Assembly: GCA_000182565.2 (NCBI GenBank)
Contig: KQ257461.1
DNA length: 64,000 nucleotides
Source of the DNA: Spizellomyces punctatus DAOM BR117
Taxonomy: Eukaryota
Reading direction: 5' to 3' (one strand)
Shown here piece after piece: positions 14,113 to 35,607 of the stretch. A model generated the notes under the pieces. It worked only from the letters and a program-made list of their open reading frames with translations. It had not been told where the DNA came from and searched no databases. Each line of letters begins with the position of its first letter. Within the stretch, counting starts at the first letter, position 1. Position numbers and translations under genes: made by a program.

Positions 14113-14717
14113 TGTAGCGAACGACTCTGATAAACCGGTTCGCTCTGTAGCGAACGACTCTGATAAACCGGTTCGCTTAAAGGCATCAGGTGACCATGAT
14201 TGAGGTTTCCGCAATTGCAACCTAAGCTTCGAAACCCCTGAGATCAAGCTCGGTTCTGGGCTACACCAGCGCAGCGCAAAGGATACGTTACACAGCCATG
14301 ATTGATCATGGCGATGGTCCGAGATGGGAAGATCGGACGCTGCCACCCTAATGAAGGCTATGGAAACTAGTGTAGATGTTACCATAGCATATTCTTGTAT
14401 AAAAAGAGGAATTCAATAAAATAAGTCAGCGGGCAGAAGCCGTAGCGACACAAAATCCCCATAACTCACTTCTCAACTCCAATCTTAGGTTAACAGGAAC
14501 CTAACAGAGCGCTTCAATGGCCTGATCACCCATACCGAAGCCTCTAAATCCTGCTCGGTTCACGACTAACCGACTCTCCTTGCCTCTCACCCTCAAGTCG
14601 CTACCGACGCCCAAAGAAAGGATTTGGAGACTACGATTCCTAGTACGGACACCCATACAACCTGCTAGGAGACCCAAGTTGTCTTTACCGTAGTCTACCA
14701 ACAAAAAATCCATTACA
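14113..14717 (+). repeat. LTR-A (5' of A1), first 33 bp tandemly duplicated
   Basis: TGTAGCGAACGAC...CCATTACA, with TATAAAA and AATAAA inside. Homologous to 22735-23306, 31410-31981 and 39348-39920. Confidence 0.92.
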
Positions 14718-14728
14718 TGGTGGAGAAG
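14718..14728 (+). promoter_or_regulatory. Primer-binding site, tRNA-Ala-like (TGGTGGAGA)
   Basis: Immediately follows the LTR terminal CA. Complementary to the ...TCTCCACCA 3' end typical of tRNA-Ala. The same site occurs in copy A2 at 31401-31409 (-). Confidence 0.7.
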
Positions 14729-14871: not shown

Positions 14872-17800
14872 ATGATGCCGGTCGAACGCTCTCCAACGCG
14901 AGGCTGCTCACCTGTGATCCAGACTCGTAGTCAGGGTCCTGCGGAGGACGTTGAAGTCCCTCCCGCAACATGCCCAAGGCGTTCAGGGACCACTTCCGTC
15001 GAACCGGAAGCCCCTAACTTGGCCACGATGGCCTCTGAAGTGGCAGCATTAAAAGAAGACATTGCCCGCTCGACTGCTGCAATGCAGTTGGCAACTCAAA
15101 ATCTTACGGAACAGCTTCATAGGCTTTCCGAACGTCAGACAGCGGCGGATGAGCGCCTCGCACGAGCCTTAGAAGCCCTAGTGCATCGCCCGCTGCCTGA
15201 ACAACCTCTCATAGCACGAGCTACAAGAGAACGGTCCGCAACCCCGTGGGAAACGTCGGACACACCAAGGGAGCATACCGAACCAAGTTTTTCAGGTCCG
15301 GTGCCTCCAATCCAAGTGCCAGCGGCCCCGTGGGCCAGCGACACCAAGGTCGATTCCTTGAAAGCAAAGGACGTACCCGAGTTTACGGGCAAAAGAAACC
15401 AAGACATTGAAGAATGGCTCAACAAAGTCCAACTTCTTCAAAATGTTAGCGCAATGTCGGATGCCAGGATGGTACAGCTCCTACCAGCCATGATAGCCGA
15501 GAAAACCCCTGCCGACGCTTGGTTTTACACTCTGGAAGCCCAGGAAACTCGCTCGTGGACCTGGAAAAGGTGGAAAGAAGAACTGCTTCGAGAGTTCCGA
15601 GATCCCCTAACCGAGTCCAAGCGCAAAACCGAATATGTGTGCTGCCATGCAAACCCCAAAGAATTTCGCAGCTTTCTCGCGTTCATTGACCACAAAACTC
15701 ATCTCCGGCGCCTCGCATACGGCGACCGGGCAAACATAGAATGTCCTGCTGACCAGCATTTTGACCTAATAGTTGAACAATTGCCCAGCGACATCCAAAT
15801 CATGGTCAAATCCTGTAATGTCATGAACCTGACCAAATTAAAAGACTTCCTGCGCCTTTATTTCAGCTCTGATGACACCAGAAAATGAGACCCTTGCTAC
15901 AGCGGTGCTGCAGAAGCTCAGAAGAAGTCACAAAAGACCGGAACTGACAAAGGCCCTAAGCAGACGGCTCAACATAAAACTGGAAACCCCGAAAAGGGTT
16001 GCGACGGCCCTCAGAAGATGGTTCTGGACCCCAACACAGAACCACCGGCACCCTGCAAATTCTGTCAGAAAAAGCATTGGAATGTTTTCTGCTGGCAGAA
16101 CCCGAACCGAAAAGATCCTGAAGATGGAAAGAAGGGACCATACGGAGCACCCATGCCCGCAGGTTGGAAACCCAAACAGGAGTCCAAGAAGTCGTACATA
16201 GTGGAGCTGGACTCGACGTCCGCTACCACCGAGACTCTTTTTTCGGCTTCGGAACTGGAAAGGACAGCCGCCGCTAATCAAGGATTCCACACCATCGGAT
16301 TCTTTCATTCACCCGAGCACTCGGAATCAACAATTTTGATGACCGCACCTCTTTCCGAGGTCACGGTGACCAAGGAAGAGGACCCCCACATGCCCACGCA
16401 GGGCTGGGACCAAGTCTGGGACAACATAGCCATCATCTGGGGCACCCCGCAAGTGGCTCTGATGATGGGCAACAACCCCCGCGCGCTCAGCTTCTTCGCC
16501 AAAGAACCGAAGCGAGGCGCCGGGCACCTCGGGAACAACCCCTACGCAGTTGTGTGGAGTTCCCACCACCTCTACATCGCTGCCGCAGCCAAAGCTGACA
16601 AGGATCGAATCCTGCGAAAAGTCCGAGAAGACAGTACCCCTTGTTTGATCCTCCTTGCCTGGATAAGGCTCGACGAGCATGAGAAATTCTTGATGTGGAG
16701 CTCCGAAGATCCTGTTATCTTTGATTCTTACGCCAACCTGCAACTGGTGGCATTTCTCCTGACAGGCAATATCATTCGCTCAGACTATTATTATCATCAC
16801 AGAAACCCCAAATTTCTGCACGTTAAAGACCATCCACGTCTCCAAAGACATGAAGAGAGCGAACGGACGTGTATAGTCATGCTGGCTATCGAACAAGTTG
16901 CTCGCCAGAATAAAACAACAAAACCACAAAATGACAAATCTAGAGAGCACTTTGAGAGTGCGATCAAGGCTACGGAAGCAACAAGTAACGACATCGCGCC
17001 CCATTTCGAGGTCATGGTGCCTTCCATCAATGCCTTCTACTCGGTAGATTTAGGCGATGTACTCAAAAGCCAGACCAAGACCCAAACGCAGCCTTGCTGG
17101 ACGCTAGCCGTCATCGCTCAGCTCTGGGCACCTGTGGTACTAGACACAGGAGCCTGCGAGTCTCTGGTTTCCGACACGTACCAGGGCCTTCTGTTCTCCG
17201 AAACTGATTTGCAGGATGCGGAAACGATGGCTTTCAAAGGCATTGGTGGACGTATCTCATCTACCAAGACAGTATGCCTCAAAACTTCCCTCAGAGGCCG
17301 CGGAGGAGAATACCTGACTTTCCGCGCCTATTTCCGAGTCATTGCATACGGGAAACCTCTCATCATCCTAGCCAATGACGTTCTGGGACATCTGAAACTC
17401 CAAACCTTGGTTCAGGAACCCCCATTACCCAGTTTCGTGGTGATGCTCAAGAATCCGGACATCCTTATCCCTTGCTCCATAACAGATGAGCTGGACACCG
17501 ATCACATGCGCAGCATGCCATACAAGACCAAGCAGGGTGAATTCATGAAGGATGCATCAATGCCACGGCTGACCAAAGCCAAAGCTCAGAAGTCTAGATT
17601 AACCATGTTAATCATGGGACAGACGCGCGTGGCAGCCCAAACTTTTCTCATCAAAAACCCTCTTGACGCCACCGCTGCTAGCTCAACGGTCCTGTTAGGC
17701 CTCAAACTGTCCACCGCGACCCATAATTCGGTTGCGGACCCCGAAGAGAACATTTCCAAAGAAGAATGGCAGACACTTCGGAACAAATGGAACCTCGACT

Positions 17801-20800
17801 CTACGGAGAGGGCTCCAGGGGCCTTCGAAGCCCAATTAAAAGACGCGGAACGTTTCCACGTCGATCTCAAGCGACCCAAACCCATGGTCTGGGCCCTAAT
17901 CAACATTCTACGACACTTCCATCAAGCCTTCAGCTATGAGGGTCATCTCATAGGGAACTACACCAAGATTCCTTATGCGCCTCGATTTATCTCGGCTCTG
18001 CCACCCCTTTCGAGGCCACGGTCATACTCTCCGTTGGAGCGGACAGCCCTCGAGACGGAGCGAGACACCATGATGGGGCTTCAGAGGTGGAACGAACCAC
18101 CGAAGTAACCTTCGCCAGCGATCCTGTTATCATTCGCTATGCAGACAAACCCCCGCGCATAGCCTTCGACTATCGCCGAGCCAACGACTGCATGGCCTGG
18201 GATCCATATCCCTTTCCCATCATGCTCGACATCCTGAACTGGATCGTCGCAGTCCCATTGCGATACATATCGGGAGGTGACGCAAACAAAGGATTCTACC
18301 AAATTGCCATCACCAATGCGTCGGTATGCAAATGGCTCGCGCTCAGACTCCATGACGGCATCTACGAACCACTCTTTATGCCCTTCGGACCCAAGACTGC
18401 CCCCTCGCACTTCTGTCAGGTGATGGACGACACCTTGGGTCCCTCCAAATGGCAAAATATCAACAACTTCGTCGACGATATCCACACACGAGCGGAGACA
18501 GCCGCGGAAGCCCTAGACGCCATTGCAGACTGGCTCGACCGCTTTTCCAGAGCCAAACTCACCCTAAGACTCGACAAGTGTCAATGGCTCTTTCACCAGC
18601 TCACGGCCCTCGGTTTCGTTGCCTCCTCTCAGGGTCTCGCTACTGATCCAGACAAGGTCGCAACCATAGTCGATTGGCCACGACCCAAATTCATAGGTGA
18701 CCTATGGTCATTCGTGGGTCTCCTAGGGTTCTATGCCCAATTCATTTCTCGCTACGCGGAACTCGTCCGACCCCTGCAAGACGCTATCCAAGAGGGCGTT
18801 CGCGAATACCGAGACCTTAAAAAGGGTCGCACTGACCCGAAGAAAGGCACTGAAAAGCTCAATTCACCATCCATGCTCGACACGGCGGTGGCCCCTACAA
18901 TCACAGCCACCGGAGCCTGATTTGAGGTTTCGCAACATCCGAAATCTAGCTCCTCAGACCTACCGGTGGTCAATCTACGCCAATCATCGCTGGCGGACTT
19001 ACCCATTGACCCCTTTTGTGTCGGACGCCTTGCTTGCAAGCGCCCCGACCAAGGTCTGCACAGATTTATCGCGAAGCGTGAAGTTTCATGGACCGATTCC
19101 CAAAACTCTGCCTTCGCAGCCGCCAAGCAGGCTCTGACAACAGCTCCAGTGCTCGCGGCACCCAGAAAAGGGTTCCCCTACACCCTTCACAGTGACGCTT
19201 CCTACACAGCGTTTAATGTCACGCTCGAACAGTTACAGCCAGATGCTTCTAAACGCCCGCTGTGCTACCATTCCTGAGGCACCACCACCTCGGAAAAGAA
19301 GGCCCCCCCTGTCAAACTCAAGGCCGGATGCCTCATTTGGGGCCTCGGAAAACTCCGCCCATACCTTGAAGGCCTGCCTTTCACGGTCATTACTGATCAC
19401 CGAGCTCTTTTGTGGCTCGCTAAATACAAAGGCGAGAACCGTAAGCTTCTCCGCTGGGCCCTCGATCTTAGTTACTGGTCTGAATGGATGACAATCATTC
19501 ACAAACCAGGACGTTTTCACATTGTTGCTGATACACTTTCATGGCTACTAGGAGCGGAAACCCTACTCTGCTCCACCGCGACCCAAATATGGGTGTCGAA
19601 ACGCGGAAGACGATGGCTGCGCACCACACCAGCTGCTCTCGCACCTTCCTCGACACTGGCAGATGCCGTCTTTCGTCTGGCCTTACAGCCTGCACTCATT
19701 GCCGCCATCCGCGCTGGCCTCACCGGCCAGCTCCACCCCATAGCCCAACAGGCCCGCACGCTCCTATGGGAGACCAGCCCCAACACCTACACTACAGCCG
19801 ATGCGCACTTTCTTCAGGACTGGCAATGTGCAGATAACCTGCTGTGGCACCGTTTTTCAGTCTCCGAAGACCTTTGGTGCCTCTACGTGCCCCCTGCTTG
19901 CACCCCCAAGGTGCGCAAGCTTTTTCACGAGGGGGGAGGACACTTCGGATTCGAAAGAACCTACGCCAGAGCCACAGCACAAGTCTGGTGGCCAAAGATG
20001 GCACAAGATTTCAGAAAACATTGCGCAGGATGTGAAACCTGCCAACGCTCAAAAAGGGTACCGCAACTGATTCCGGGGTTGTTGAAACCCATACCACCAG
20101 CTCCGGGACGCTGGACAGTCATCACGACTGACTTCGTAACCAAGCTCCCACTTACTTCCAGAGGGTACGATGCCTTTTGGCTAATAGCTTGTAAATGCTC
20201 AAAGAGGATCCACATATGGCCCCTCAAGAGCACCGCGACAGCTACTCAGGTCGCAGAACTATTTATAGAATGCTACATCCCATTGCACGGCATTCTGGAG
20301 ACTATTATCTCAGACCATGACTCCATCATTGAAAGGCTGTCAGAAACCAGAAATGCAGATGTGGAAGAGCTCTGTAAACATCTCGGAGACCTAAACATCC
20401 TTATCCGAGATCTGATGATTGAGGCCCAGGATTCACAGAAAAGATATGTGACAGAATTCTTCTGTCAGTGCTATGGTTATACTGGTTAGATGTGGTTCCA
20501 AACTAGTGGTCACATGACTTTGCTGATGGTGTCAACATTCATTTGACCAGAATTAGATAAATAAGCAGATTTAGCCATTTCTGGCTAAATTAGATGAGTA
20601 TCCTGACACACTAGCATCTGCCCCTTTCAATCAAGTGGCACAGTGTATTTAGGATGACTTGTCTCACTTGTGATTGGCTATAAATGGTGCAATAGGCTGA
20701 CAAATAGTTTAGGATGACATGTACAAGATCTGATTGGTTGCAAATGGTGCAATAGGCTGACAAATAGTTTAGGATGACATGTACAAGATCTGATTGGTTG

Positions 20801-22677
20801 CAAATGGTGCAATAGGCTGACAAATAGTTTAGGATGACATGTATGAGTTCTGATTGGTTGCAAATGGTGCAATAGGCTGACAAATAGTTTAGGATGATGT
20901 GGGTGAGATCTGATTGGGTAGTTAGGATATAGCATTTGTCAGCCCCTTTGTCTATAAAAAGAGGACCTCTCTGAGGCCCCTCAAAGGAAAATAACAAGTA
21001 GTAACCAAGTCTTCCCTAGTTTTCTGTTGTCTTCTTGTCCCTGCTAGCCTGTTACAAGATACTATGATTTATCACAACAACATTTGGAGTTCCGGAGAGG
21101 AGATAAGGTGCTTCTGAGCATGAAAAACCCAGCAGGGTATGAGTCCAAGATCACTCCAAAATGGCTGGGACCAGTCACAGTGACTGACTGTAACCTTCTC
21201 TGTGACAACTACGAGTGAAAACTGCCAGATAAGATGAGATGACTTCATCCATGGTTTCACATATTGAAATTATGTCCATACCAGAAGCCTGTCGATGCCG
21301 AAACTGAGGAAAGGATCGCGGAAGCACAAATGGAGGATTCCGACACTTCAAAAGGCGAGTTCGAAGTGGAAGCGATAGTAGACCATCGAACCAGGCGCAG
21401 AAAGCGTCAATTTCGAATACGTTGGGCCGGATACCCACCCCATGAGGATACCTGGGAACCAGAGGAAGCCCTAACAGAGGCTTCCGAAGCCTTAGAAGAG
21501 TACTGGAGATCCAGAGCTCCCACTAGCGCACTAGTAGAGGACTCCTTGGTAGTCAGCTTTGCAGGCGATGCCCTGGCTTACACTTCCGACCACCAATGCT
21601 TCACAATTTATCCGGACAATAGCTCACGTGATAATCACGCCCTCTCACCAGAANNNNNNNNNNNNNNNNNNNNNNNNNNNNNNNNNNNNNNNNNNNNNNN
21701 NNNNNNNNNNNNNNNNNNNNNNNNNNNNNNNNNNNNNNNNNNNNNNNNNNNNNNNNNNNNNNNNNNNNNNNNNNNNNNNNNNNNNNNNNNNNNNNNNNNN
21801 NNNNNNNNNNNNNNNNNNNNNNNNNNNNNNNNNNNNNNNNNNNNNNNNNNNNNNNNNNNNNNNNNNNNNNNNNNNNNNNNNNNNNNNNNNNNNNNNNNNN
21901 NNNNNNNNNNNNNNNNNNNNNNNNNNNNNNNNNNNNNTACCCTTGAGGAAGGCTATCCCTGGTCAGAAGTAAGCGACGCTTCGCTGCCGAGACTCTATCG
22001 AGCGGCTCGGAGCAGCTATGGCCACCTGGGTCGAAGTTTGGATTCGTGAGCTGTTCGAAGACCCAAACAAACCCCTCGAACACTATCATGGTGAAGATTG
22101 GGTGGTTGACGGGGCTTCGAAGCTGTACGCCACGAGCCAGCCCCTCACGATGCATATTGCGGAGCCCTACAGTAGGGCTTCCGACGGCGGTCAAGCAGCT
22201 GTCGGTATCGTCGCTGATGCAAAAAAGATCGGGAAGAGATTACGGGACGTACCCTGCGCCGCCTGGCTTGATGCTGGGGTCCCTCAACATGCGGCCGGAA
22301 ACCCCAAAACGGCCCGCTTCACCCTCTGGCCTGATCGCGAGGCCCACGATTTTGCGGACATAGCCATCGAAGCCGCGAGAGCAGTGTTGTTAAAGCTAGC
22401 CAACGCAGCTGAAACCACAGAAGAGCAGCTCCGTCCCAAACATCGGGAGCACGCCTATTACCACTTTCGAGCGGTTAACTTGAAAAGGGCCGCAGAGACG
22501 TTCACAGCCCTCTACGTAACCCGAGCCAACGGTTCCAGGACACCTGGAACCCTGGCTCCGGAAGCCACTGACCAAATTTGGTTCTGCGCAAACATCATGG
22601 GGCGCACTACCATAATCTGGATGATCAACGAAGACAGCCTTGAAGCTGACGATGACTATCCAGTTGCGTCATGGTAG
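14872..22677 (+). pseudogene. Family A gag-pol (Gag, CCHC knuckle, Dam-like insert, aspartic protease, RT, RNase H, partial integrase, chromodomain, C-terminal extra domain), disrupted
   Basis: Motifs CKFCQKKHWNVFC, VLDTGA, FDYRRAN, PFGPKTAP, FVDD, LHSDAS, H..GGHFG..C..C, TDFV and EVEAIVDHR...RWAGY...DTWEP. Stops at 15886, 18918 and 19275, a 1-bp frameshift near 18092, and an LTR-B insertion. Confidence 0.88.
20447..21056 (+). mobile_element. Solo LTR of family B (610 bp) in the A1 integrase region
   Basis: TGTGACAG...GTTACA flanked by a 5-bp AGATA duplication; internal 60-bp tandem repeats. Confidence 0.92.
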
Positions 22678-22734: not shown

Positions 22735-23306
22735 TGTAGTGAACGACTCTGATAAACCGGTTCGCTCAAAGGCATCAGGTGACCACGATTGAGGTTTCCG
22801 CAATTGTAACCTAAGCTTCGAAACCCCTAAGATCAAGCTCGGTTCTGGGCTACACCAGCGCAGCATGAAGGATACGTTACGCAGCCATGATCAATCATGG
22901 CGATGGTCCGAGATGGGAAGATCGGATGCCGCCACCCTAATGAAGGCTACGGAAACTAGTGTAGACGTTACCGTAGCATATTCTTGTATAAAAAGAGGAA
23001 TTCAATAAAATAAGTCGGCGGCCAGAAGCCGTAGCGACATTAAATCCCCACAACTAGCTTCTCAACTCCAATCTTAGGTTAACAGGAACCTAACAGAGCG
23101 CTTCAATGGCCTGATCACCCGCACTGAAGCCTCTAAATCCTGCTCGGTTCATGACTAACCGACTCTCCTTGCCTCTCACCCTCAAGTCGCTACCGACGCC
23201 CAAAGAAAGGATTTGGAGACTATGATTCCTAGTACGGACACCCACACAACCTGCTAGGAGACCCAAGTTGTCTTTACCGTAGTCTACCAACAAAAAATCT
23301 GTTACA
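22735..23306 (+). repeat. LTR-A (3' of A1), preceded by PPT GAAGGGGGGA
   Basis: Homologous to 14146-14717; followed by CTGG. Confidence 0.92.
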
Positions 23307-25685
23307 CTGGGATTCTCTGGGTTTCTGGGGTTCTCTGGGATGCTGGGGTTCTCTGGGGTTCCAGGTAAAGTCCATGGATAGTTAAAGTCTCAGGGGTGGT
23401 TTCAGGTGGGTCCAATAGGTCCAAGGGTTGAATAACAGGAGAGTGTACCAGGTGGTGGGTGTCAGGGTGGTGGTTCTTGATATCTTCCCCAGTAGAGGCA
23501 GAACCTCTATCTTCTACTGAGTCTGCTTGCCATTTCCCTGCTGCTTGGTCTTCAAGGGGCATAGGGGGGCAATATGGCCTGGTTTTCTGCACCTGAAACA
23601 GGCTCCCTTCTTTCTGAGCTCAGTCTTCTCAGCCTCAGTGAGTTTGGAGAGAGGCTTCCCAGAGTTGGTGGATATACTATCTATCTCCATAGGGACTACT
23701 CCAGAGTTCTCAGTCTTAGGGGAGTAGTAGCTGGTGGCCTGGCTTCTTCTCTGGTAGCTGAACTGGATCTGGTCAATCCTATCAGCTGTTGCTGCAGCTG
23801 TGGCTAAGTTGATGGGTGGGNNNNNNNNNNNNNNNNNNNNNNNNNNNNNNNNNNNNNNNNNNNNNNNNNNNNNNNNNNNNNNNNNNNNNNNNNNNNNNNN
23901 NNNNNNNNNNNNNNNNNNNNNNNNNNNNNNNNNNNNNNNNNNNNNNNNNNNNNNNNNNNNNNNNNNNNNNNNNNNNNNNNNNNNNNNNNNNNNNNNNNNN
24001 NNNNNNNNNNNNNNNNNNNNNNNNNNNNNNNNNNNNNNNNNNNNNNNNNNNNNNNNNNNNNNNNNNNNNNNNNNNNNNNNNNNNNNNNNNNNNNNNNNNN
24101 NNNNNNNNNNNNNNNNNNNNNNNNNNNNNNNNNNNNNNNNNNNNNNNNNNNNNNNNNNNNNNNNNNNNNNNNNNNNNNNNNNNNNNNNNNNNNNNNNNNN
24201 NNNNNNNNNNNTCCTAATCTCTTCGACATAGGTGGTGGCTACTAACAGTTGGCCTTCTGGTGATAGATCTGCAGCTGCCTGGAAGTACTCTTCAAGTCTG
24301 AGGAGGTATGTCCTAATCTCTTGGACATTCCTGTTGCCTTTGTAGGGCTTCAACTTGCTTTGGAGGACTTTTACCAGGGATTTATCTACTCTGGGTTGGT
24401 ACTGAGCAGTGGCTGGTGTGGTGGAGTTCAGCTGCTGGAGCTTTGCTTGATAAAGCTCCTGCCTGACCTGGTCTATGTCAAGCTCAGCAATGGTGTTGAA
24501 GAGAATCTCTTCCTGGCTGGTCATGGTGGTAATGGGGTGGAGTCTTGGGTAGTTACAATATTACTTGTAACAACAACAATAGGGTGGGTCACAGGCCCAA
24601 GAGATGCAATGTTACTTGCAGTCAAAATAGGGTGGGTCACAGGCCCAAAATATGCAATATTACTTGCAAGTACAACTGGTGGGGAGGATACAGGGGGACT
24701 CTACAGCTTCTTCACAATCCCACAATAGAAAAACTCTATCTGTTTTCTCAGAGCTTCTGATGCTAACCAAGTGGTGTGTCTGGTGGTAGTTCTGGAGGTT
24801 GTGCTGGGGGTAGGTTTGTGGTATGGGGTGGTGTGGGCTGGTCTGTAGGAGTCCTTGAGGGGGGGTTCTGGGCATAAGTTGGGCCTGGGATAAGAGGCAG
24901 GGGTCTTCTGATATTACTCAGAAGGACTAGGGCAGGGTCTGGGGTCTGGGGTCTGTTGGTCTTCTGATATTACTCAGAAGGTCTAGGGCAGGGTCTGGGG
25001 GTCTGGGGATCTTAGCTTCTGATCTCTCACAGAAGGTCTAAGAGTCTGGGGTTGTTGTCTAAGGTGGTGCTACCATGTAACAGGCTAGCAGGGACAAGAA
25101 GACAACAGAAAACTAGGGAAGACTTGGTTACTACTTGTTATTTTCCTTTGAGGGGCCTCAGAGAGGTCCTCTTTTTATAGACAAAGGGGCTGACAAATGC
25201 TATATCCTAACTACCCAATCAGATCTCACCCACATCATCCTAAACTATTTGTCAGCCTATTGCACCATTTGCAACCAATCAGAACTCATACATGTCATCC
25301 TAAACTATTTGTCAGCCTATTGCACCATTTGCAACCAATCAGATCTTGTACATGTCATCCTAAACTATTTGTCAGCCTATTGCACCATTTGCAACCAATC
25401 AGATCTTGTACATGTCATCCTAAACTATTTGTCAGCCTATTGCACCATTTATAGCCAATCACAAGTGAGACAAGTCATCCTAAATACACTGTGCCACTTG
25501 ATTGAAAGGGGCAGATGCTAGTGTGTCAGGATACTCATCTAATTTAGCCAGAAATGGCTAAATCTGCTTATTTATCTAATTCTGGTCAAATGAATGTTGA
25601 CACCATCAGCAAAGTCATGTGACCACTAGTTTGGAACCACATCTAACCAGTATAACCATAGCACTGACAGAAGAATTCTGTCACA
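23307..25685 (-). mobile_element. 5' half of Ty3/gypsy family B: LTR 25685-25076, PBS, repeat-rich leader, gag, start of pol
   Basis: The LTR appears identical to 20447-21056. PBS TGGTAGCACCACC at 25075-25063. Leader has ~57-bp and ~48-bp tandem repeats. Confidence 0.9.
23514..24524 (-). CDS. Family B Gag with CCHC zinc knuckle (spans an N gap)
   Basis: KPYKGNRN...YLLRLEEYF, VPMEID and CFRCRKPGHIAPLC. Confidence 0.8.
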   Translation of the reverse strand: MTSQEEILFNTIAELDIDQVRQELYQAKLQQLNSTTPATAQYQPRVDKSLVKVLQSKLKPYKGNRNVQEIRTYLLRLEEYFQAAADLSPEGQLLVATTYVEEIRXXXXXXXXXXXXXXXXXXXXXXXXXXXXXXXXXXXXXXXXXXXXXXXXXXXXXXXXXXXXXXXXXXXXXXXXXXXXXXXXXXXXXXXXXXXXXXXXXXXXXXXXXXXXXXXXXXXXXXXXXXXXXXXXXXXPPINLATAAATADRIDQIQFSYQRRSQATSYYSPKTENSGVVPMEIDSISTNSGKPLSKLTEAEKTELRKKGACFRCRKPGHIAPLCPLKTKQQGNGKQTQ

Positions 25686-28600
25686 TATCTTTTCTGTGAA
25701 TCCTGGGCCTCAATCATCAGATCTCGGATAAGGATGTTTAGGTCTCCGAGATGTTTACAGAGCTCTTCCACATCTGCATTTCTGGTTTCTGACGGCCTTT
25801 CAATGATGGAGTCATGGTCTGAGATAATAGTCTCCGGAATGCTGTGCAATGGGATGTAGCATTCTATAAATAGTTCTGCGACCTGAGTAGCTGTCGCGGT
25901 GCTCTTGAGGGGCCATACGTGGATCCTCTTTGAGCATTTACAAGCTATTAGCCAAAAGGCATCATACCCTCTGGAAGTAAGTGGGAGCTTGGTTACAAAG
26001 TCAGTCATGATGACTGTCCAGCATCCCAGAGCTGGTGGTATGGGTTTCAGCAACCCCAGAATCAGTTGCGGTACCCTTTTTGAGCATTGGCAGGTTTCAT
26101 ATCCTGTGCAATGTTTTCTGAAATCTTGTGCCATCTTTGGCCACCAGACTTGTGCTGTGGCTCTGGCGTAGGTTCTTTCGAATCCGAAGTGTCCTCCCCC
26201 CTCGTGAAAAAGCTTGCGCACCTTGGGGGTGCAAGCAGGGGGCACGTAGAGGCACCAAAGGTCTTCGGAGACTGAAAAACGGTGCCACAGCAGGTTATCT
26301 GCACATTGCCACTCCTGAAGAAAGCGCGCGTTGGCTGTAGTGTAGGTGTCAGGGCTGGTCTCCCATAGGAGCATGCGGGCCTGTTGGGCTATGGGGTAGA
26401 GCTGGCCGGTGAGGCCAGCGCAGATGGCGGCAATGAGTGCAGGCTGTAAGGCCAGACAAAAGACGGCATCTGCCAGTGTCAAGGAAGGTGCGAGAGCCGC
26501 TGGTGTGGTGCGCAGCCATCGTCTTCCGTGTTCCGCCACCCATATTTGGGTTGCGGTGGAGCAGAGTAGGGTTTCTGCTCCTAGTAGCCATGAAAGTGTA
26601 TCAGTGACAATGTGAAAACATCCTGGTTTGTGAATGATTGTCATCCATTCAGACCAGTAACTAAGATCGAGGGCCCAGCAGAGAAGCTTATGGTTCTCGC
26701 CTTTGTATTTAGTGAGCCACAAAAGAGCTTGGTGATCAGTAATGACTGTGAAAGGCAGGCCTTCGAGGTATGGGCAGAGTTTTCCAAGGCCCCAAATGAG
26801 GCATCCGGCCTCGAGTTTGACGGGGGGGGCCTTTTTTTCTGAGGTGGTGGTGCCTCGAGAATGGTAGCACAGCGGGCGGTTAGAAGCATCTGGCTGTAAC
26901 TGTTCGAGCATGACATTAAATGCTGTGTAGGAAGCGTCACTGTGAAGGGTGTAGGGGAACCCTTTTCTGGGTGCCACAAGCACTGGAGCTGTTGTCAGAG
27001 CCTGCTTGGCGGCTGCGAAGGCAGAGTTTCGGGAATCAGTCCATGAAACTTCACGCTTCACAATAAATCTGCACAGACCTTGGTCCGGGCGCTTGCAAGC
27101 AAGGCATCCGACACAAAAGGGGTCAATGGGTAAGTCCGCCAGCGATGATTGGCATAGATTGACCGCCGGTAGGTCTGAGGAGCTAGATTTCGGATGTTGC
27201 GAAACCTCAAATCAGGCTCTGGTGGCTGTGATTGTAGGGGCCACCGCCATGTCAAGCATGGATGGTGAATTGAGCTTTTCAGCACCTTTCTTTGGGTCAG
27301 CGCGACCCTTTTTAAGGTCTCGGTATATGCGAACGCCCTCTTGGATAGCATCTTGCAGGGGCCAGATGAGTTCCACGTAGCGAGAGATGAATTGGGCATA
27401 GAACCCTAGGAGACCCACAAATGACCATAGGTCACCTATGAATTTGGGTTGTGGCCAATCGACTATGGTTGCAACCTTGTCTGGATCGGTAGCAAGACCC
27501 TGAGAGGAGGCAACAAAACTGAGAGCCGTGAGCTGGTGAAAGAGCCATTGACACTTGTTGAGTCTTAGGGTGAGTTTGGCTCTGGAAAAGCAGTCGAGCC
27601 AGTCTGCAATGGCATCTAGGGCTTCCGCAGCTGTCTCTGCTTGTGTATGGATATTGTCGATGAAGTTGTTGATATTTCGCCATTTGGAGGGACCCAAGGT
27701 GTCATCCATCACCCGACAGAAGTGTGAAGGGGCAGTCTTGGGTCCGAAGGGCATAAAGAGTGGTTCATAGATGCTGTCATGGAGTCTGATCACAAGCCAT
27801 TTGTGTACCAACACATTGGTGATGGCAATTTGGTAGAATCCTTTGTTTGCATCACCTCCCGATATGTATCGGAATGGGACTGCAACGATCCAGTTCAGGA
27901 TGTTGAGCATGATGGGAAAGGGATATGGATCCCAGGCCATGCAGTCATTGGCTCGGCGATAGTCAAAGGCTACCCACGGGGGTTTGTCTGCATAGCGAAT
28001 GATAACAGGATTGCTGGTGAAGGTTACTTCGGTGGTTCATTTCCACCTCTGAAGCCCCATCATGGTGTCTCGTTCCAGCTCAAGGGCTGTCCGCTCCAAC
28101 GGAGAGTATGACCATGGCCTCAAAAGGGGTGGTGGAGCCGAGATAAATCAAGGTGCATAGGGAATCTTAGTGTAGTTCCCTATGAGATGACCCTCATAGC
28201 TGAAGGCTTGATGGAAGTGTCATAGAATGTTGATTAGGGCCCAGACCACGGGTTTGGGTCACTTGAGATCGATGTGGAAACGTTCTGCATCTTTTAATTG
28301 GGCTTCGAAGGCCCCTGGAGCCTTCTCCATAGAGTCGAGGTTCCATTTGTTCCGAAGTGTCTGCCATTCTTCTTTGGAAATGTTCTCTTCAGGGTCTGCA
28401 ACCAAATTATGGGTTGTGGTGGACAGTTTGAGGCCTAATGGGGCCGTTGAGCTAGCAGCGGTGGCCTCAAGAGGGTTTTCGATGAGAAAAGTTTGGGCTG
28501 CCACGCGCATCTGTCCTGTGATTAACATGGTTAATCTAGACTTCTGAGCTTTGGCTTTGGTCAGCTGTGGCATTGACACATCCTTCATGAATTCACCCTG

Positions 28601-31600
28601 CTTGGTCTTGTATGGCGTGCCATGCATGTGATCGGTGTCCAGCTCATCTGTTATGGAGCAAGGGATAAGGATGTCCGGATTCTTGAGCATCACCACGAAA
28701 CTGGGTAATGGGGGTTCCTGAACCAAGGTTTGGAGTTTCAGATGTCCCAGAATGTCGTTGGCTAGGATGATGAGAGGTTTCCCATATGCAATGACCCGAA
28801 AGTAGGTGCAGAAAGTCAGGTATTCTCCTCCATGGCCTCTGAGGGAAGTTTCGAGGCACACTGTCTTGGTAGATGAGATACGTCCACCAATGCTGTTGAA
28901 AGCCATCATTTCCACATCCTGTAAATCAGTTTCGGAGAACAGAAGGCCCAGGTATGTGTCAGAAACCAGAGACTCGCAGGCTCCTGTGTCTAGTACCACA
29001 GGTGCCCAGAGCTGAGCAATGACAGCTAGCATCCAGCAAGGCTGCATTTGGGTCTTGGTCTGGCTTTTGAGTACATCGCCTAAATCTACCAAGTAGAAGG
29101 CATTGATGGAAGGCACCACAACCTCGAAATGGGGCATGATGTCATTAATTGTTGCTTCCATGGCCTTGATCACACTCTCAAAGTGCTCCCTAGATTTGTT
29201 GTTTTGTGGTTTTGTTGTTTTATTCTGGCGAGCAACTTGTTTGATAGCCAGCATGACTATATACATCCGTTCACTCTCTTCATGTCTTTGGAGATGTGGA
29301 TGGTCTTTAACGTGCAGAAATTTGGGGTTTCCGTGATGATAATAATAGTCTGAGTGAACAATATTGCCTGTCAGGAGAAATGCCACCAGTTGCAGGTTGG
29401 CGTAAGAATCAAAGATAACAGGGTCTTCAGAGCTCCACATCAAGAATTTCTCATGCTTGTCGAGCCTTATCCAGGCAAGGAGGATCAAACAAGGGGTACC
29501 ATCCTCTCGGACTTTTTGCAGGATTCGATCCTTGTCAGCTTTGGCTGCAGCAGTGATGTAGAGGTGGTGGGAACTCCACGCAACTGCATAGGGGTCATTC
29601 CTGAGGTGCCCAGCACCTCGCTTTGGTTCTTTGGCAAAGAAGCTGAGCATGCGGGGGTTGTCGCCCATCATCAGAGCCACTTGCGGGGTGCCCCGGATGA
29701 TGGCTATGTTATCCCAGACTTGGTCCCAGCCCTGCGTGGGCATGCGGGGGTCCTCTTCCTTGGTCACCGTGACCTCGGAAAGAGGTGCGGTCATCAAAAT
29801 TGTTGATTCCGAGTGCTCGGGTGAATGAAAGAATCCAATGGTGTGGAATCCTTGATTAGCGGCGGCTGTCCTTTCCAGTTCCGAAGCCGAAAAAAGAGTC
29901 TCGGTGGTAGCGGACGTCGAGTCCAGCTCCACTATGTACGACTTCTTGGACTCCTGTTTGGGTTTCCAACCTGCGGGCATGGGTGCTCCGTATGGTCCCT
30001 TCTTTCCATCTTCAGGATCTTTTCGGTTCGGGTTCTGCCAGCAGAAAACATTCCAATGCTTTTTCTGACAGAATTTGCAGGGTGCTGGTGGTTCCTTGTT
30101 GGGGTCCGGAACCATCCTCTGAGGACCATTGTGACCCTTTTCGGGGTTTCCAGTTTTATGTTGAGCCGTCTGCTTAGGGCCTTTGTCAGTTCCGGTCTTT
30201 TGTGACTTCTTCTGAGCTTCTGCAGCACCGCTGTAGCAAGGGTCTCATTTTCTGGTGTCATCAGAGCTGAAATAAAGGCGCAGGAAGTCTTTTAATTTGG
30301 TCAGGTTCATGACATTACAGGATTTGACCATGATTTGGATGTCGCTGGGCAATTGTTCAACTATTAGGTCAAAATGCTGGTCAGTGGGATATATTATGTT
30401 TGCCCGGTCGCCATATGTGAGGCACCGGAGATGAGTTTTGTGGTCGATGAATGTGAGAAAGCTGCGAAATTCTTTGGGGTTCACATGGCAGTGCACATAT
30501 TTGGTTTTGCGCTTGGACTTGGTTAGGGGATCTCAGAACTCTTGAAGCAGTTCTTCTTTCCACCTTTTCCAGGTCCACAAGCAAGTTTCCTGGGCTTCCA
30601 GAGTGTAAAACCAAGCATTGGCAGGGGTTTTCTTGGCTATCATGGCTGGTAGGAGCTGTACCATCCTGGCATCTGACATTGCGCTAACATTTTGAAGAAG
30701 TTGGACTTTGTTGAGCCATTCTTCAACATCTTGGTTTCTTTTGCCCATAAACTCAGGTATGTCCTTTGCTTTCAAGGAATCGACCTTAGTGTCGCTGGCC
30801 CATGGGGCTGCTGGCACTTGGATTGGAGGCACCAGACCTGAAAAACTTGGTTCCATATGCTCCCTTGGTGTGTCCAATGTTTCCCATGGGGTTGCAGACT
30901 GTTCTCTTGTAGCTCGTGCTATGAGAGGTTGTTCAGGCAGTGGCACTAGGGCTTCTAAGGCTCGTGCGAGGCACTCATCTGCCACTGTCTGATGTTCGGA
31001 AAGCCTATGAAGCTGTTCCGTAAGATTTTGAGTTGCCAACTGCATTGCAGCAGTCGAGTGGGCAATGTCTTCTTTTAACGCTGCCACTTCAGAGGCCATC
31101 ATGGCCAAGTTAGGGGCTTCCGGTTCGACGGAAGTGGTCCCTGAATGTCTCGGGCATGTTGCGGGAGGGACTTCGACGTCCTCCGCTGGACCCTGACTAC
31201 AAGTCTGGATCACAGGTGAGTGGCCTCACATTGGAGAGCGTTCGACCAGCATCATTCTCAGTTTCATGAAGTCTGTTTCCGAAACGAGAGAAAAGGTTTC
31301 CGAGTAGCTACCTGAGCAGATCTCGGTTTGTGCAAGAGTTTCGGTACGACCGAATAAGGTTTTCAGCTGAATTTGAGAGGGGAAGGCAGTTCGTCGCACT
31401 TCTCCACCATGTAATGGATTTTTTGTTGGTAGACTATGGTAAAGACAACTTGGGTCTCCTAGCAGGTTATGTGGGTGTCTGTACTAGGAATCATAGTCTC
31501 CAAAATCCTTTCTTTGGGCGTCAGTAGCAACTTGAGGGTGAGAGGCAAGGAGAGTCGGTTAGTTGTGAACTGAGCAGGATTTAGAGGCTTCAGTGCAGGT

Positions 31601-31981
31601 GATCAGGCTGTTGAAGCACTCTGTTAGGTTCCTGTTAACCTAAGATTGGAGTTGAGAAGCTAGTTGTGGGGATTTAGTGTCACTATGGCTTCTGCCCACA
31701 ACTTATTTTATTGAATTCATCTTTTTATACAGGAATATGCTACAGTAACATCTACACTAGTTTCCGTAACCTCCATTAGGGTGGCGGTGTCCGATATTCC
31801 CGTTTCCGATCATTGCCATGATCAATTATGACTGCGTACCATATCCTTTGCGCTGCGCTGGTGTAGCCCAGAACCGAGCTTGATCTCAGGGGTTTCGAAG
31901 CTTAGGTTGCAATTGCGGAAACCTCAATCATGGTCACCTGATGCCTTTAAGCGAACCGGTTTATCAGAGTCATTCGCTACA
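25686..31981 (-). mobile_element. 5' part of family A copy A2 (LTR 31981-31410, PBS, decayed gag-pol from 31255 to the integrase)
   Basis: Inverted homolog of 14146-20446 with many additional CpG-type transitions. Confidence 0.92.
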
Positions 31982-32320
31982 CCAGAATCCCAGAGAACCC
32001 CAGAAACCCAGAAAATCGCAGGACCCCTGAGAACCCCAGAATCCCAGAGAACCCCAGAAACCCAGAGAATCCCAGAACCCCAGAGAACCCCAGAACCCCA
32101 GAGAACCCCAGAATCCCAGAGAACCCCAGAACTCCAGAGAACCCAAGAACTCCAGAGAACCCAAGAACCCCAGAGAACCCAAGAACTCCAGAGAACCCAA
32201 GAACCCCAGAGAACCCCAGAACCCCAGAGAACCCAAGAACCCCAGAGAACCCCAGAACCCCAGAGAACCCTAGAACCCCAGAAAACCCAGGAACCCCAGA
32301 GAACCCCAGAACCCCAGACC
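31982..32320 (+). repeat. 18-bp coding tandem repeat (CCAGAACCCCAGAGAACC; PEPQRT), about 19 units; continues at 23307-23363 on the opposite strand
   Basis: Directly visible. Confidence 0.9.
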
Positions 32321-35300
32321 ACCCAGGCCACCTACCAAGAAAGCAAGATCCATGTAGTAGAGGTGGCTCCATACTCTTTAAGTACCCCCAAAGGGCCAAG
32401 GATTCCCCGGAGTCACTTGCTGACTGTGCAAGGTAGAATCCAAGGAATCCCAGTAACCATTCTCCTGGATAATGGGGCAAACCAACTCTATGTGTCACAG
32501 TCCTTTGTCAAGAAGGCACAACTGGTGACTCATTCTCTCCCTGGAGCAGAAATCTCTATGGCTGATGACAGAAAGCACCAAGAAATAGGCTTTGTCAAAG
32601 GTCTTCAGTACTCAGTAGGAACCTACACAGAACAGTCAGACTTTATAGTAGCCCCAATCAAGTTTGACTTGATCCTGGGTATACCTTGGTTTGCCTGGAG
32701 GAATCCCAGTATCAACCACAACAAGAACACTGTGACCTTCACCACCTCCCAGCACCCCAGAGTCAGATGGTTTGTTAAGCAGGCCAGCTCTTCCAACAAA
32801 TCCCAGAAGTCCAATCTTATCACCATGGTATCAGCAAAGATGTTGGTCAGAACACTGAAGAAGAGGACAGCAACAGCTTTTGCTGTGTATCTCAAGAACC
32901 CTCAAGATACCAGCACCCCTCCAGACACCATGGATTCCAAAGTCACCAAGCTTCTTGAAAACTATCAAGATGTCTTTGTGGAAGAGCTTCCCCCAGGACT
33001 TCCCCCTGAGAGAACAGTGGATCACAGAATTGAACTCAGTGCCCCCAACCAGACCCCCTGGAGACCAACCTACCACCTCTCTTCTTTGGAGTTAGAAGAA
33101 CTGAGGAAGCAGCTGTCTGAACTTCTGGAGGCAGGCCACATCAGACCATCCAAGAGCCCCTTTGGAGCACCCATCCTCTTTGTCAAGAAGAAAGAAGGGT
33201 CTTTGAGGATGTGTGTGGACTACAGGGCTCTGAATAAAATCACCATCAAGAGCAGATATCCCCTCCCTAGGATTGATGAGCTGATGGACAGACTGAATGG
33301 AGCCCAGGTCTTTACCAAGCTGGATCTCAAGTCAGGCTACTACCAGATCAGGATCCACCCAGAAGACATCCCCAAGACAGCTTTCAGAACCAGATATGGT
33401 CACTTTGAGTTCCTGGTCATGTCCTTTGGAATGACCAATGCCCCAGCCACTTTCATGACTTTGATGAATGATGTTCTAAGACCCTTCTTGGACATCTTTG
33501 TTATTGTCTACCTAGATGACATCCTCATCTACTCCAAGACCCCAGAAGATCACCTGGACCACCTCAAGCAGGTTCTGCAAGCCCTCAGGCAGAACAAGCT
33601 GTATGCCAACCCCAGCAAGTGCCAGTTCTTCAAGCAAGAAGTAGAGTTTCTTGGCCATGTAGTCTCACATGAAGGAGTCAGGCTTGACCCCAAGAAAGTG
33701 CAGACTGTTCAAGAATGGCCCACCCCTCAGAGCGTCACTGAAGTCAGACAGTTCATGGGCCTGGTGAACTACTTCCATAGCTTTCTGAAGGACCTGGCAG
33801 AGCAAGCTGCACCATTGACAGACCTGTTGAGAAATGACAAGCCCTGGACCTGGTCTGAACCTCAGGAGAAAGCTTTTCAGCAGCTGAAGGATATGGTCAC
33901 CAAAGCCCCTGTACTCAGACCCTTTGACCCAGCCTTGCCTACCACTGTCTTCCCTGATGCCTCAGGCTATGCAGTTGGAGCATGGCTTGGACAGGATGAT
34001 GGGAAAGGCATGAGACCAGTTGCCTACCACTCCAGGAAGATGGCTCCAGCAGAGACCAGATATGACACCAGACAACAAGAGCTGTTAGCCATCCATGATG
34101 CCCTCAGAGTTTGGAGGCCCTACCTGGAAGGAACCCCCTTCAAAGTTATCTCAGACCACCAGTCCCTCAAGTGGCTACAGAACCAGCCCTTCTTGACCAG
34201 AAGACAAGCCAGATGGGTCATGAATTTCCAATCTTTTGACTTTGAGATTGGCTATGGCCCAGGAAGACTCCACACAGTGGCAGACATCCTGTCTAGAAGA
34301 CCAGACCTGGCCCCAAGATGCATCAAGTGCAAGGCCTTGGTGACAGCAGAGTTGAATGCTGTGACCCACACCACCAGCACCCTTCAAGAGAGATTGAAGA
34401 CCAGTACCACAGAAGACCCAGAACTTCAAGAGCTCATCCAAGCTTTGGATGACCCCAGGAGACCAGAAGACCAGCAACAAAGGCTCAAATACCTCAGCCA
34501 TCAAGATGGGTTACTCTATTTCCAGGACAGGATTTTTGTTCCTAGTGACCCAGACCTAAGGTTGAGCCTACTCCAAGAAACCCATGACACTCAGTATGCT
34601 GGACACTTTGGCATCACCAAGACCCATGATGCCCTAGCAAGGCATTACTACTGGCCAAGGATGTACAAGGACATTACGAAGTATGTCAAGTCTTGTGATT
34701 CCTGCCAGAGAAGCAAACCTAGTCAGCAACCACCAGCAGGCTTGCTGCAGCCCCTCCCAGTACCTAAGACCAGATGGAGCCAGATTTCCATTGACCTGAT
34801 CCCTGACCTACCTGTGACTTCCTCTGATCACAATGCCATCTTTGTCATTGTTGACAGATTGTCAAAGAGAGGCCACTTCATCCCTACCACCACCAGAGCC
34901 TCAGCCAAGGACCTGGCCCTGCTCTTCTTGAAGCACATCTTCAAGCACCATGGCCTCCCAGAAGTGATTGTATCTGATAGAGACACCAAGTTCACCAGTT
35001 CATTCTGGTCCAACTTGATGCAACTCTTAGGCTGCAACACCCTCCTAGCCACTGCAAGGCACCAGCAGACCAATGGACAGGCAGAGAGAACCATCAAGAC
35101 TTTGAAGATCTACCTGAGAGCTTTCCTGCAGTACAACATGAAGAATTGGGAAGATCTTGTACCCTTTGCTGAGTTTGCCTACAACAACAGTATCTCAGAA
35201 ACCACAGGCTTTACCCCATTCTACTTAGAGAATGGCCAGCATCCCAGGACCCCAGCAACACCACCAGGAGAAAGCAATGATCCTGAAGCAACAGACTTCC

Positions 35301-35607
35301 ACCAGTATATTCAGCAACTGCTTCAAGTAGCCAAGGATAACATGATACTGGCCCAAGAAAGACAAGTTCAGCAAGCCAACAAGTCTCTCAGCAAGGCCCC
35401 AAGCTACCCCTTAGGCTCCAAAGTTTGGCTATCTAGAGAAGGTATCACCCCAGAAGAAGAAGCCCAGAGGCCAGCCCAGAAACTTCTTCACCCCTGGCTT
35501 GGACCTTACAGAATCAAGGCCAAGGATGAATTTCAGAATTACACCCTGGAGCTCCCCAGCACCATGAAGATTCATCCAGTGTTCCATGTGAGACTCCTCA
35601 AGCCTTA
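31982..35607 (+). CDS. Family B Pol (PEPQRT repeat, protease, RT, RNase H, integrase, SH3-like), open frame, 3'-truncated
   Basis: Motifs [63 protein letters not shown] and HPVFHV. Confidence 0.92.

Follow-up and report, generated by a model that had tools for sequence, protein, structure and literature searches.

A conserved extra domain of chytrid Ty3/gypsy chromoviruses, apparently inactive and possibly a relic of a DIRS-type adenine methyltransferase

The closest systems described are the DAM-LTR elements, Ty3/gypsy retrotransposons with a Dam-like domain derived from DIRS elements, which were reported in a bioRxiv preprint of May 2026 (10.64898/2026.05.21.726589). According to the text of this preprint, there were four or more transfers of the domain (DAM) from DIRS to Ty3/gypsy elements, most of them in hosts that have AMT1/6mA, and five DAM-LTR lineages are named (chlorophyte, chloro-ochrophyte, ichthyosporean, Pyropia and Euglena). 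Its main text, figures and supplements aside, mentions neither fungi nor chytrid nor Spizellomyces. The screen was an hmmsearch at E ≤ 1e-5, and the text describes nearly all DAMs as keeping a conserved Asn-Pro-Pro. It also describes a conserved catalytic pocket, with no activity measured in E. coli, and proposes either direct 6mA deposition or the recruitment of the host's AMT1.

It is debated whether the Dam-like domains found in DIRS and DAM-LTR elements are enzymes at all. The function of the DIRS methyltransferase (MT) domain is listed as unknown (PMC3266345), and one group considers the domain likely inactive and suggests that it binds template transcripts (Iyer et al.; PMC4738411). [quoted passage not shown] As for the host of the element studied here, Spizellomyces punctatus is described as having high 6mA, and its clade as marking genes with 6mA and transposons with 5mC (PMC12695648). 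The original prediction, made from the DNA alone, had stated that early-diverging fungi use 6mA on active genes, which agrees with the genic 6mA described for this clade.

We analyzed a stretch of 64,000 nucleotides from S. punctatus DAOM BR117 (contig KQ257461.1 of assembly GCA_000182565.2), which we call the window. The element that hosts the domain is a Ty3/gypsy chromovirus of a Spizellomyces-type chytrid, with paired LTRs and matches to the Pfam families RVT_1, RT_RNaseH, Integrase_H2C2 and Chromo. Its parts follow the chromovirus order LTR-gag-PR-RT-RH-IN with a C-terminal chromodomain, PR being placed by its D-T-G motif and by alignment alone. In copy 1 (family A, plus strand), the 5' LTR (14146..14720; repeat families D4/D5) aligns by blastn with the 3' LTR (22735..23310) at 94.4% identity over 576 nt. 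The ORF list gives a Gag (capsid-like) ORF at 14872..15885, its start taken as the first Met of the translation; it has no significant Pfam family and is closed by an in-frame TGA (15886-15888), a stop common to copy 2. The next ORF (15889-18108) encodes a CCHC-type zinc knuckle, C-x2-C-x3-H-x4-C, at 16054..16092 (amino acids 56-68, read from the translation), then the methyltransferase-like domain (16405..16839, approximately 145 amino acids; delimited by phmmer and BLASTP relatives, alignments and tblastn) and the aspartic protease region (17095..17460). The latter has no Pfam protease match and was assigned through its D-T-G motif (LDTGA at 17140-17154; D419, nt 17143-17151) and a BLASTP alignment to P0006, a Geranomyces gypsy polyprotein. 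The reverse transcriptase (17940..18920; Pfam RVT_1, E 2.7e-10) lies in another frame in copy 1 owing to a 1-nt indel relative to copy 2 near 18091, where the inverted-repeat arms break (18091/18092). Further downstream are RNase H (19089..19472; Pfam RT_RNaseH_2, E 5e-14; RT_RNaseH, E 7.8e-13), the integrase H2C2 zinc-binding domain (19887..20057; Pfam Integrase_H2C2, E 1.7e-18), beyond which the integrase core (rve) has no Pfam match, and the chromodomain (21360..21509; Pfam Chromo, E 6.9e-17). An assembly gap (a run of N at 21654-21937) lies just 3' of the chromodomain.

Copy 2 spans about 25051-31981 on the minus strand. Its domain (29294..29728, minus strand) was located by tblastn and by the inverted-repeat arms, and its protein is 91% identical to that of copy 1. 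A window-wide tblastn finds the domain only in these two places, at 16405-16839 and at 29297-29728. The original prediction had put the second copy at about 29365-29730 on the minus strand; the copy is real, and only its coordinates need correction, being 2 nt out of frame (in frame, 29363-29728). A DIRS element was sought in the window as a comparator, and none was found among the 29 long ORFs.

The segment 16405-16770 (plus strand), which is the core of the domain, translates without a stop into WDQVWDNIAIIWGTPQVALMMGNNPRALSFFAKE...LQLVAFLLTGN, exactly the peptide quoted in the original prediction. Its placement there, inside a Ty3/gypsy polyprotein between the Gag knuckle and the protease, is borne out as well: the domain is discrete and conserved, with the CCHC knuckle upstream and the DTG protease downstream. 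In a library-wide phmmer search, gypsy polyproteins of Geranomyces (Spizellomycetales) match at E 2.3e-19 and 3.9e-17 with approximately 34% identity, the alignments beginning at the first residues of the segment. In all four Geranomyces proteins (P0005, P0006, P0008 and P0009) the domain immediately precedes the protease. Compared with P0006, the domain shows 35% identity, the linker behind it 15% and the protease 47%, so that the possibility of a segment unconstrained among its relatives, raised with the original prediction, is not borne out. An alignment of four sequences of the domain has 38 invariant columns. Judging from these alignments, the extra domain is real, discrete and constrained. 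Word-indexed protein searches, restricted to near or longer lengths and run up to E 10, returned chytrid gypsy proteins only. One further protein, P0007 (5,097 amino acids, repetitive), was dropped, as its match (E 2e-6) falls outside the segment.

The motif W-G-x-P-x-I-D-L-F-A-[D/N] is found in all four Geranomyces relatives, and V-A-L-M-M stands in place of IDLFA in both window copies. The catalytic triplet NPP[YF] is absent from all five full-length members, the two window copies included. N-P-P is invariant in our alignment of 11 phage Dam proteins (HP1, SO-1, Vibrio K196, Stx2a phage, PHB07, T1, phiCT19406C, Ab9, PK3.5, UE-S1 and Vibrio 1.205.O), and the residues under it are A-A-A in the window copies, H-V-A in P0005, H-V-H in P0006 and H-I-H in P0008; in P0009, a fragment of 72 amino acids, the region is deleted. 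The claim that the SAM-site D and the catalytic PP are replaced in both copies therefore holds in alignments to relatives and to phage Dam alike, and the proposed look for relatives with DxFA or NPP had a divided outcome, D-L-F-A being kept in Geranomyces and NPP in none. The phage Dam consensus of 11 sequences reads FGFxLDxAA ... DW ... WxNPPYS ... WVxKA ... TVVML, and the chytrid consensus shows the same order of blocks (WGLPxIDLFA ... SW ... LYAHVx ... RVLDKV ... ALILV). Because none of the known full-length members retains NPP[YF], the domain is predicted to be unable to transfer methyl groups and looks catalytically dead. The original prediction compares the segment by eye with a longer DIRS MT/phage Dam pattern. 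The likeness to the DIRS1 MT domain, D-L-F-A in the Geranomyces relatives against the published DLFAS, is one of published motif and description only.

Compared with the DAM-LTR elements, the chytrid element shares the Ty3/gypsy backbone, a chromodomain as in the chlorophyte DAM-chromovirus lineage, a polyprotein with an added Dam/DIRS-like domain and a host clade with AMT1-type 6mA. It differs in that its domain would escape an hmmsearch at E ≤ 1e-5, having no Pfam Dam match at E ≤ 10, and in that Asn-Pro-Pro is absent. The position differs as well: DAM sits between integrase and reverse transcriptase, the only position described in the text of the preprint (10.64898/2026.05.21.726589), whereas the chytrid domain sits between knuckle and protease. 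Unlike the DIRS1 domain, it stands ahead of a protease, and the element around it has LTRs together with an integrase zinc finger and a chromodomain.

The original prediction called the domain Dam/DIRS-type methyltransferase-like, a captured pseudo-MTase, and this part of it found no formal backing: the tests for a Rossmann methyltransferase match or fold (Pfam, hhalign, shuffles and Foldseek) passed no significance threshold. With Pfam at E ≤ 10, there was no Dam or other relevant match for the segment, a 250-amino acid region, copy 2, P0005 or P0006; HP1 Dam, the positive control, scores 7.1e-75, and the matches to Glyoxalase (E 0.088) and Tugs (E 0.12) are noise. PHROGs gave nothing and NCBIfam only an irrelevant sigma-factor match (E 0.097). 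Sequence searches of the PDB, whether the query was the window region or the chytrid profile, returned response-regulator noise only (E about 1), and none of 50,697 phage records matched the P0006 domain in tblastn at E ≤ 10. In hhalign, the chytrid family against the 11 phage PF05869 Dam proteins reached a probability of 0.4% (P 0.14), the sole local alignment covering the first motif (motif I region). Local, relaxed and global modes and 12 subset combinations were not significant (best subset P 0.042); in relaxed mode the two families stay collinear for 120 columns, with H-V-H under N-P-P. When the phage Dam HMM was scored against shuffled sequences, 145, 180, 155, 600 and 1000 of 1000 shuffles equaled or exceeded the scores of the five full-length sequences, and the two halves of the domain taken separately were not significant. 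The 72-amino acid fragment P0009 alone stood out (1 of 1000 shuffles).

The Atlas, in which scores below 0.9 count as leads only, placed the P0006 domain near a PF05869 Dam cluster (14% of members; score 0.88; 173 shared features) and a PCIF1_WW cluster (96%; score 0.86), the sole named families among its nearest clusters and both below 0.9. The DIRS MT domain is tied to these same two families in the literature (10.64898/2026.05.21.726589; PMC4738411). PF05869 Dam, with Haemophilus phage HP1 orf13 and phage T1 Dam as examples, resembles the chytrid domain in its conserved blocks, which come in the same order, and in this Atlas cluster; it differs in having the N-P-P that the chytrid domain lacks, and neither sequence nor profile comparison shows a significant similarity between them. 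The likeness to PCIF1/CAPAM (PF12237), a cellular enzyme that actively methylates RNA caps and has a WW domain, consists of the Atlas neighbor and a structural match described below; the chytrid domain differs in having no Pfam match, no WW domain and no NPPF motif. The Atlas neighbors of the window sequence are beta-propeller families, also below 0.9, and the window's own sequence gave no methyltransferase signal with any tool used.

The AlphaFold model of the P0006 domain has a pLDDT of 57.6 and a pTM of 0.59. Its better-predicted C-terminal half shows strand-helix-strand-helix and then a beta hairpin. Among the 48 Foldseek matches listed for this model in the PDB, about 29 are SAM-dependent methyltransferases by a reading of their descriptions, including E. 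coli Dam (2ore). In BFVD, a phage “DNA N-6-adenine-methyltransferase” is at rank 3 (E 0.13, prob 0.72) and a giant-virus PCIF1 at rank 33. None of the matches in either database reaches E ≤ 0.001, the best being 0.16 (PDB) and 0.05 (BFVD), with TM about 0.3. No member of PF05869 has a solved structure. The window domain was modeled at a pLDDT of 40.3; its Foldseek list (KH, V-ATPase, DriD, with 3 of the 44 matches listed methyltransferase-like) is meaningless.

An alternative reading is that the domain is peculiar to Spizellomycetales gypsy elements, without methyltransferase ancestry, and that its Dam/DIRS motifs arose by chance; it could be an extension of the nucleocapsid or the protease, or a host fragment with a different fold that was captured. 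Every formal homology test is non-significant, both structure models are of low confidence, and the window's own model and Atlas neighbors point elsewhere. Moreover, alpha/beta topologies of the Rossmann type are common, and six rows make a shallow alignment that could readily produce one. Such an origin is nevertheless unlikely, because several independent weak leads converge on a family that had been named beforehand: the Atlas clusters of PF05869 and PCIF1, rank 3 in BFVD, the methyltransferase-rich PDB list, the hhalign alignment on motif I and the DIRS1-specific DLFA(S) in four of four Geranomyces relatives.

A methyltransferase fold could also have been taken from a host gene, PCIF1-like or for another amino-methyltransferase, rather than from DIRS. 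The PCIF1_WW cluster at 0.86 would fit this origin, as would the presence of many non-Dam methyltransferases, Trm11, TrmK and RumA among them, in the sub-threshold PDB matches, and Iyer et al. count even the DIRS MT domain among the members of the PCIF1 clade (PMC4738411). We consider it improbable: W-G-x-P-x-I-D-L-F-A agrees with the DIRS1-specific DLFAS, and the preprint text treats the DAMs borne by transposable elements as one clade passing between DIRS and LTR elements (10.64898/2026.05.21.726589).

On balance, we regard the domain as probably a relic of a DIRS-type adenine-methyltransferase domain, an ancestry that we infer from leads below statistical significance. A DIRS-type (Dam/PCIF1-like) N6-adenine methyltransferase domain would have been captured by an LTR lineage before the Spizellomyces and Geranomyces elements diverged, making it a fungal counterpart of the DAM-LTR retrotransposons. 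NPP[YF] would have been lost in all full-length members, and the family in the window would have lost the D-L-F-A cofactor-site motif as well. Since the domain was conserved despite the lost triplet, it may have had a non-catalytic role in the active ancestor, its alpha/beta scaffold being kept as a binding module in Gag-Pol within the particle. Candidate binding partners are the RNA or cDNA of the element, or a protein partner from the host, for example its AMT1 6mA machinery. We hold this predicted binding function, like the binding of nucleic acid or 6mA put forward in the original prediction, with less confidence than the ancestry. It is likely that the domain is an inactive variant of the DAM-LTR/DIRS-type domain that has not been described before, and the data support this kinship in part. 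More tentatively, and with some doubt, the Spizellomycetales chromoviruses might form a sixth DAM-LTR lineage, a fungal one, that lost the triplet long ago while selection persisted.

If the DIRS-type ancestry is correct, a conserved lineage without the catalytic triplet would be a natural case of separation of function, favoring a non-catalytic role. It would mean that DAM domains borne by transposable elements can act without methyl transfer, for example by binding RNA/cDNA or 6mA-marked DNA or by docking AMT1. Fungi would join the hosts of DAM-bearing LTR elements, and HMM screens with strict thresholds would be missing divergent DAM members. The chytrid host has strong 6mA and is genetically tractable. 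Should the kinship not be confirmed, the finding reduces to an uncharacterized conserved domain in the gypsy elements of chytrids, a result of modest interest.

Both copies in the window are pseudogenes, with stops or a frameshift. Between them, 103 of the first 108 differences are transitions, and 85 of 115 transitions lie in a CpG context; both are dead copies that have been eroding through CpG deamination after insertion. As a test of constraint, dN/dS between the two was dropped, since differences that arose by this post-insertion decay are uninformative. An unconstrained spacer or decayed sequence with an accidentally open frame, to which the pseudogene state of both copies, the 12 synonymous and 10 non-synonymous codons by which they differ in the segment and an overlapping antisense ORF might seem to point, is refuted and scarcely credible, because homologues in another genus (E 1e-17 to 1e-19, 38 invariant columns) occupy the same site before the protease with more than twice the identity of the adjacent linker, and the differences between copies are CpG decay. 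The antisense ORF that overlaps the segment 16405-16770 is 150 amino acids long.

The segment that the original prediction took to be methyltransferase-like (16405-16770, +) translates without a stop into the peptide given there and forms residues 173-294 of a 739-codon open frame (15889-18108), downstream of a knuckle, C-x2-C-x3-H-x4-C (residues 56-68), and upstream of a protease motif, L-D-T-G-A (residues 418-422). The second copy claimed for it exists, but was placed 2 nt out of frame; the in-frame copy is at 29363-29728 (-), and tblastn with the domain finds these two copies only across the 64 kb window. They belong to a Ty3/gypsy chromovirus. Copy 1 has LTRs at 14146-14720 and 22735-23310 (94.4% identity), and the element matches the Pfam domains RVT_1 (2.7e-10), RT_RNaseH_2 (5e-14), RT_RNaseH (7.8e-13), Integrase_H2C2 (1.7e-18) and Chromo (6.9e-17). 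Copy 2 (about 25051-31981) is inverted.

Is the segment conserved among relatives? When 1.84 billion representatives were searched exhaustively with phmmer, residues 100-340 matched four proteins at E<=0.001. P0004, which carries the name Spizellomyces punctatus DAOM BR117, is a further copy of the same family (86% identical) and matches the C-terminal part only. The other close matches are from Geranomyces michiganensis and G. variabilis: the gypsy polyproteins P0005 (E 2.3e-19) and P0006 (E 3.9e-17), each with 34% identity. P0007, an unrelated repetitive protein of 5,097 amino acids whose match falls outside the segment, was dropped. Word-indexed protein searches added two more Geranomyces proteins, P0008 and P0009, and no relative outside Spizellomycetales. 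The species names of the close matches place the window in Spizellomyces or a near relative within this chytrid order. The P0005 and P0006 alignments begin at residue 171-174, the start of the segment, and end at about residue 320; the same protease follows the domain in all four Geranomyces proteins. An alignment of four sequences has 38 invariant columns. Compared with P0006, the segment is 35% identical and the 24 residues after it 33%; identity then falls to 15% in the linker before rising to 47% in the protease, which delimits a conserved unit of approximately 145 residues (16405-16839). An unconstrained segment is contradicted by the E-values of these homologues and by the contrast with the linker; on these comparisons the domain is genuine and selection has acted on it. 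In both copies an antisense open frame of 150 codons overlies the segment (16327-16779, -; 29354-29806, +); it is probably accidental, because the conservation with Geranomyces is that of the sense frame.

Where the window has W-G-T-P-Q-V-A-L-M-M-G, its Geranomyces relatives carry W-G-x-P-x-I-D-L-F-A-[D/N]. DLFAS is described as a conserved pol motif particular to DIRS1-like elements (PMC2685390). Beginning with phage HP1 orf13 (Pfam PF05869 at 7.1e-75), we built a set of 11 phage Dam proteins. Their consensus blocks are, in order, F-G-F-x-L-D-x-A-A, D-W, W-x-N-P-P-Y-S, W-V-x-K-A and T-V-V-M-L, with N-P-P invariant in all 11. The consensus of the chytrid domains (window copies and Geranomyces relatives) has the same block order: W-G-L-P-x-I-D-L-F-A, S-W, L-Y-A-H-V-x, R-V-L-D-K-V, A-L-I-L-V. 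A relaxed hhalign run aligns the two sets collinearly along 120 columns, with H-V-H beneath N-P-P. At this site both window copies have A-A-A, P0005 H-V-A, P0006 H-V-H and P0008 H-I-H, and in P0009 this part is deleted. The catalytic triplet is absent from all five full-length members, and D-L-F-A is additionally gone in the window family. The predicted replacement of key residues in both copies is borne out under this alignment (V-A-L-M-M, A-A-A); among the relatives, D-L-F-A is kept in all four Geranomyces proteins but N-P-P in none.

Formal tests of methyltransferase kinship all fell below significance. No chytrid sequence has a Pfam match to Dam at E<=10; for the chytrid domain PHROGs returned nothing, NCBIfam only one irrelevant sigma-factor match, and neither a tblastn search of phages nor sequence searches of PDB gave anything relevant. 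The hhalign comparison of the chytrid and phage Dam profiles is not significant (probability 0.4%, P 0.14), its one local alignment covering the first motif block, and the best of 12 subset comparisons reaches P 0.042. With the phage Dam HMM, 145 to 1000 of 1000 shuffles scored at least as well as the five full-length chytrid domains, and the halves scored separately were not significant; only the 72-residue P0009 fragment stands out (1/1000).

No member of PF05869 has a solved structure. AlphaFold, given an input alignment of six rows only, reached pLDDT 40.3 for the window domain, and pLDDT 57.6 and pTM 0.59 for that of P0006, in which 48 residues, mostly in the C-terminal half, have pLDDT 70-90. 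The order in this half (strand, helix, strand, helix, beta hairpin) is the one that a class I methyltransferase would show in its second half. Against PDB, Foldseek gave nothing at E<=0.001 for the P0006 model (best 0.16). Neither the Rossmann methyltransferase hit nor the fold asked for by the original prediction reached significance. About 29 of the 48 PDB matches listed are SAM-dependent methyltransferases by description, including E. coli Dam (2ore); the count includes fibrillarin, DOT1L, TehB, SAMTOR and DhpI, which are methyltransferases. In BFVD the best E is 0.05, named methyltransferases are 7 of the 50 matches listed, and the third-ranked entry is a phage protein named "DNA N-6-adenine-methyltransferase" (E 0.13, prob 0.72). 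The window model retrieved KH, V-ATPase and DriD entries from PDB, with 3 of the 44 matches listed methyltransferase-like; this list lends the methyltransferase no support, as expected at that model quality.

In the Protein Atlas, the P0006 domain lies nearest to two unnamed eukaryotic clusters, commonest in Mollusca, followed by a cluster with PF05869 Dam in 14% of members (0.88); a PCIF1_WW cluster also appears (0.86). All these scores are below 0.9 and so leads only by the Atlas's own grading. The window's 241-residue region gave beta-propeller families, also below 0.9, and no support for a methyltransferase. Both named leads for P0006 are families to which the literature ties the DIRS methyltransferase domain: Dam (10.64898/2026.05.21.726589) and PCIF1 (PMC4738411).

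We somewhat favor a DIRS-type methyltransferase origin of the domain: the relatives keep D-L-F-A, the blocks are collinear, and several weak leads converge. This origin is not proven, since the formal tests, run against phage Dam proteins and against family, phage and structure databases, all fell short. Dam-like domains in LTR elements of the Ty3/gypsy type ("DAM-LTRs") are the subject of a May 2026 preprint, which reports no fewer than four captures from DIRS elements, hosts that mostly have AMT1 and 6mA, an Asn-Pro-Pro motif kept in nearly every domain, and no measurable activity in E. coli (10.64898/2026.05.21.726589). Its main text names five lineages, none fungal, and mentions neither fungi, chytrids nor Spizellomyces; the chytrid domain would fail its hmmsearch cut-off (E<=1e-5). 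Our literature search on Dam or adenine methyltransferases in Gypsy LTR retrotransposons found no further relevant paper. If the DIRS-type origin is true, the domain would be a fungal, catalytically dead DAM-LTR variant in a new polyprotein position. The domain may have had a non-catalytic binding role in Gag-Pol. In the view of Iyer et al., DIRS methyltransferase domains are probably inactive and may bind template transcripts (PMC4738411). In S. punctatus, genes carry high 6mA and transposons carry 5mC (PMC12695648).

Both element copies are dead, relics at this locus. Copy 2 (25643-31483, -) has eight internal in-frame stops, all TGA, ahead of a terminal TAG. Copy 1 has the TGA after gag, common to copy 2, and an RT frame change, a 1-nt indel between copies at about 18091 (+) / 28041 (-); protease and RT parts share one frame in copy 2. 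The common TGA (15886-15888, +; 30245-30247, -; context AAA TGA GAC in both) separates a capsid-like gag ORF from the zinc-knuckle ORF, and a knuckle after the stop is unusual. It could be an inherited nonsense mutation, which a CGA to TGA change at CpG would yield, or serve for programmed readthrough. Over 2204 aligned bases, 121 positions distinguish the copies. Transitions make up 103 of the first 108 differences; 85 of 115 transitions fall in CpG context, and most of these read C-to-T or G-to-A when going from copy 1 to copy 2. This pattern fits 5mC-driven decay by deamination on transposons, to which 5mC is described as confined in S. punctatus (PMC12695648). Because the copies differ by CpG-type transitions, the codon changes between them in the segment (12 synonymous, 10 non-synonymous) are put down to neutral decay since insertion, and their comparison was rejected as a test of constraint.

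The integrase ORF has the H2C2 zinc finger and no Pfam match to the integrase core; it enters a low-GC stretch (0.39; 20380-21240, +) with 60-nt tandem repeats that recurs at 25051-25685, 37057-37666 and 54269-54761. This may be an internal deletion or foreign insertion common to all family-A copies (those of this element). A 1,755-codon open frame (31832-37096, +) begins in the copy 2 LTR read in antisense, crosses an 18-nt tandem repeat (31925-32361; PEPQRT-like repeats in translation), and holds a complete second gypsy family (protease, RT, RNase H, integrase, SH3) that lacks an extra domain ahead of the protease. From there it continues without a frame change into a third family-A copy (35607-37691), of which it enters the RNase H-integrase half and which is 99% identical to copy 2. 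The arrangement is either chimeric, a nested insertion or due to faulty assembly. N runs mark assembly gaps at 21654-21937, just past the copy 1 chromodomain, 23821-24211 and 54093-54192. The transposon nest is flanked by host gene fragments: Rap/Ran-GAP (43149-43670, -; 2.8e-39), nucleoporin Nup120/160 (46801-49875, +; 5.5e-43), NatA auxiliary subunit (58813-59346, +; 1.4e-13) and ATP-citrate lyase (60878-63998, +; Citrate_bind 1.1e-92).
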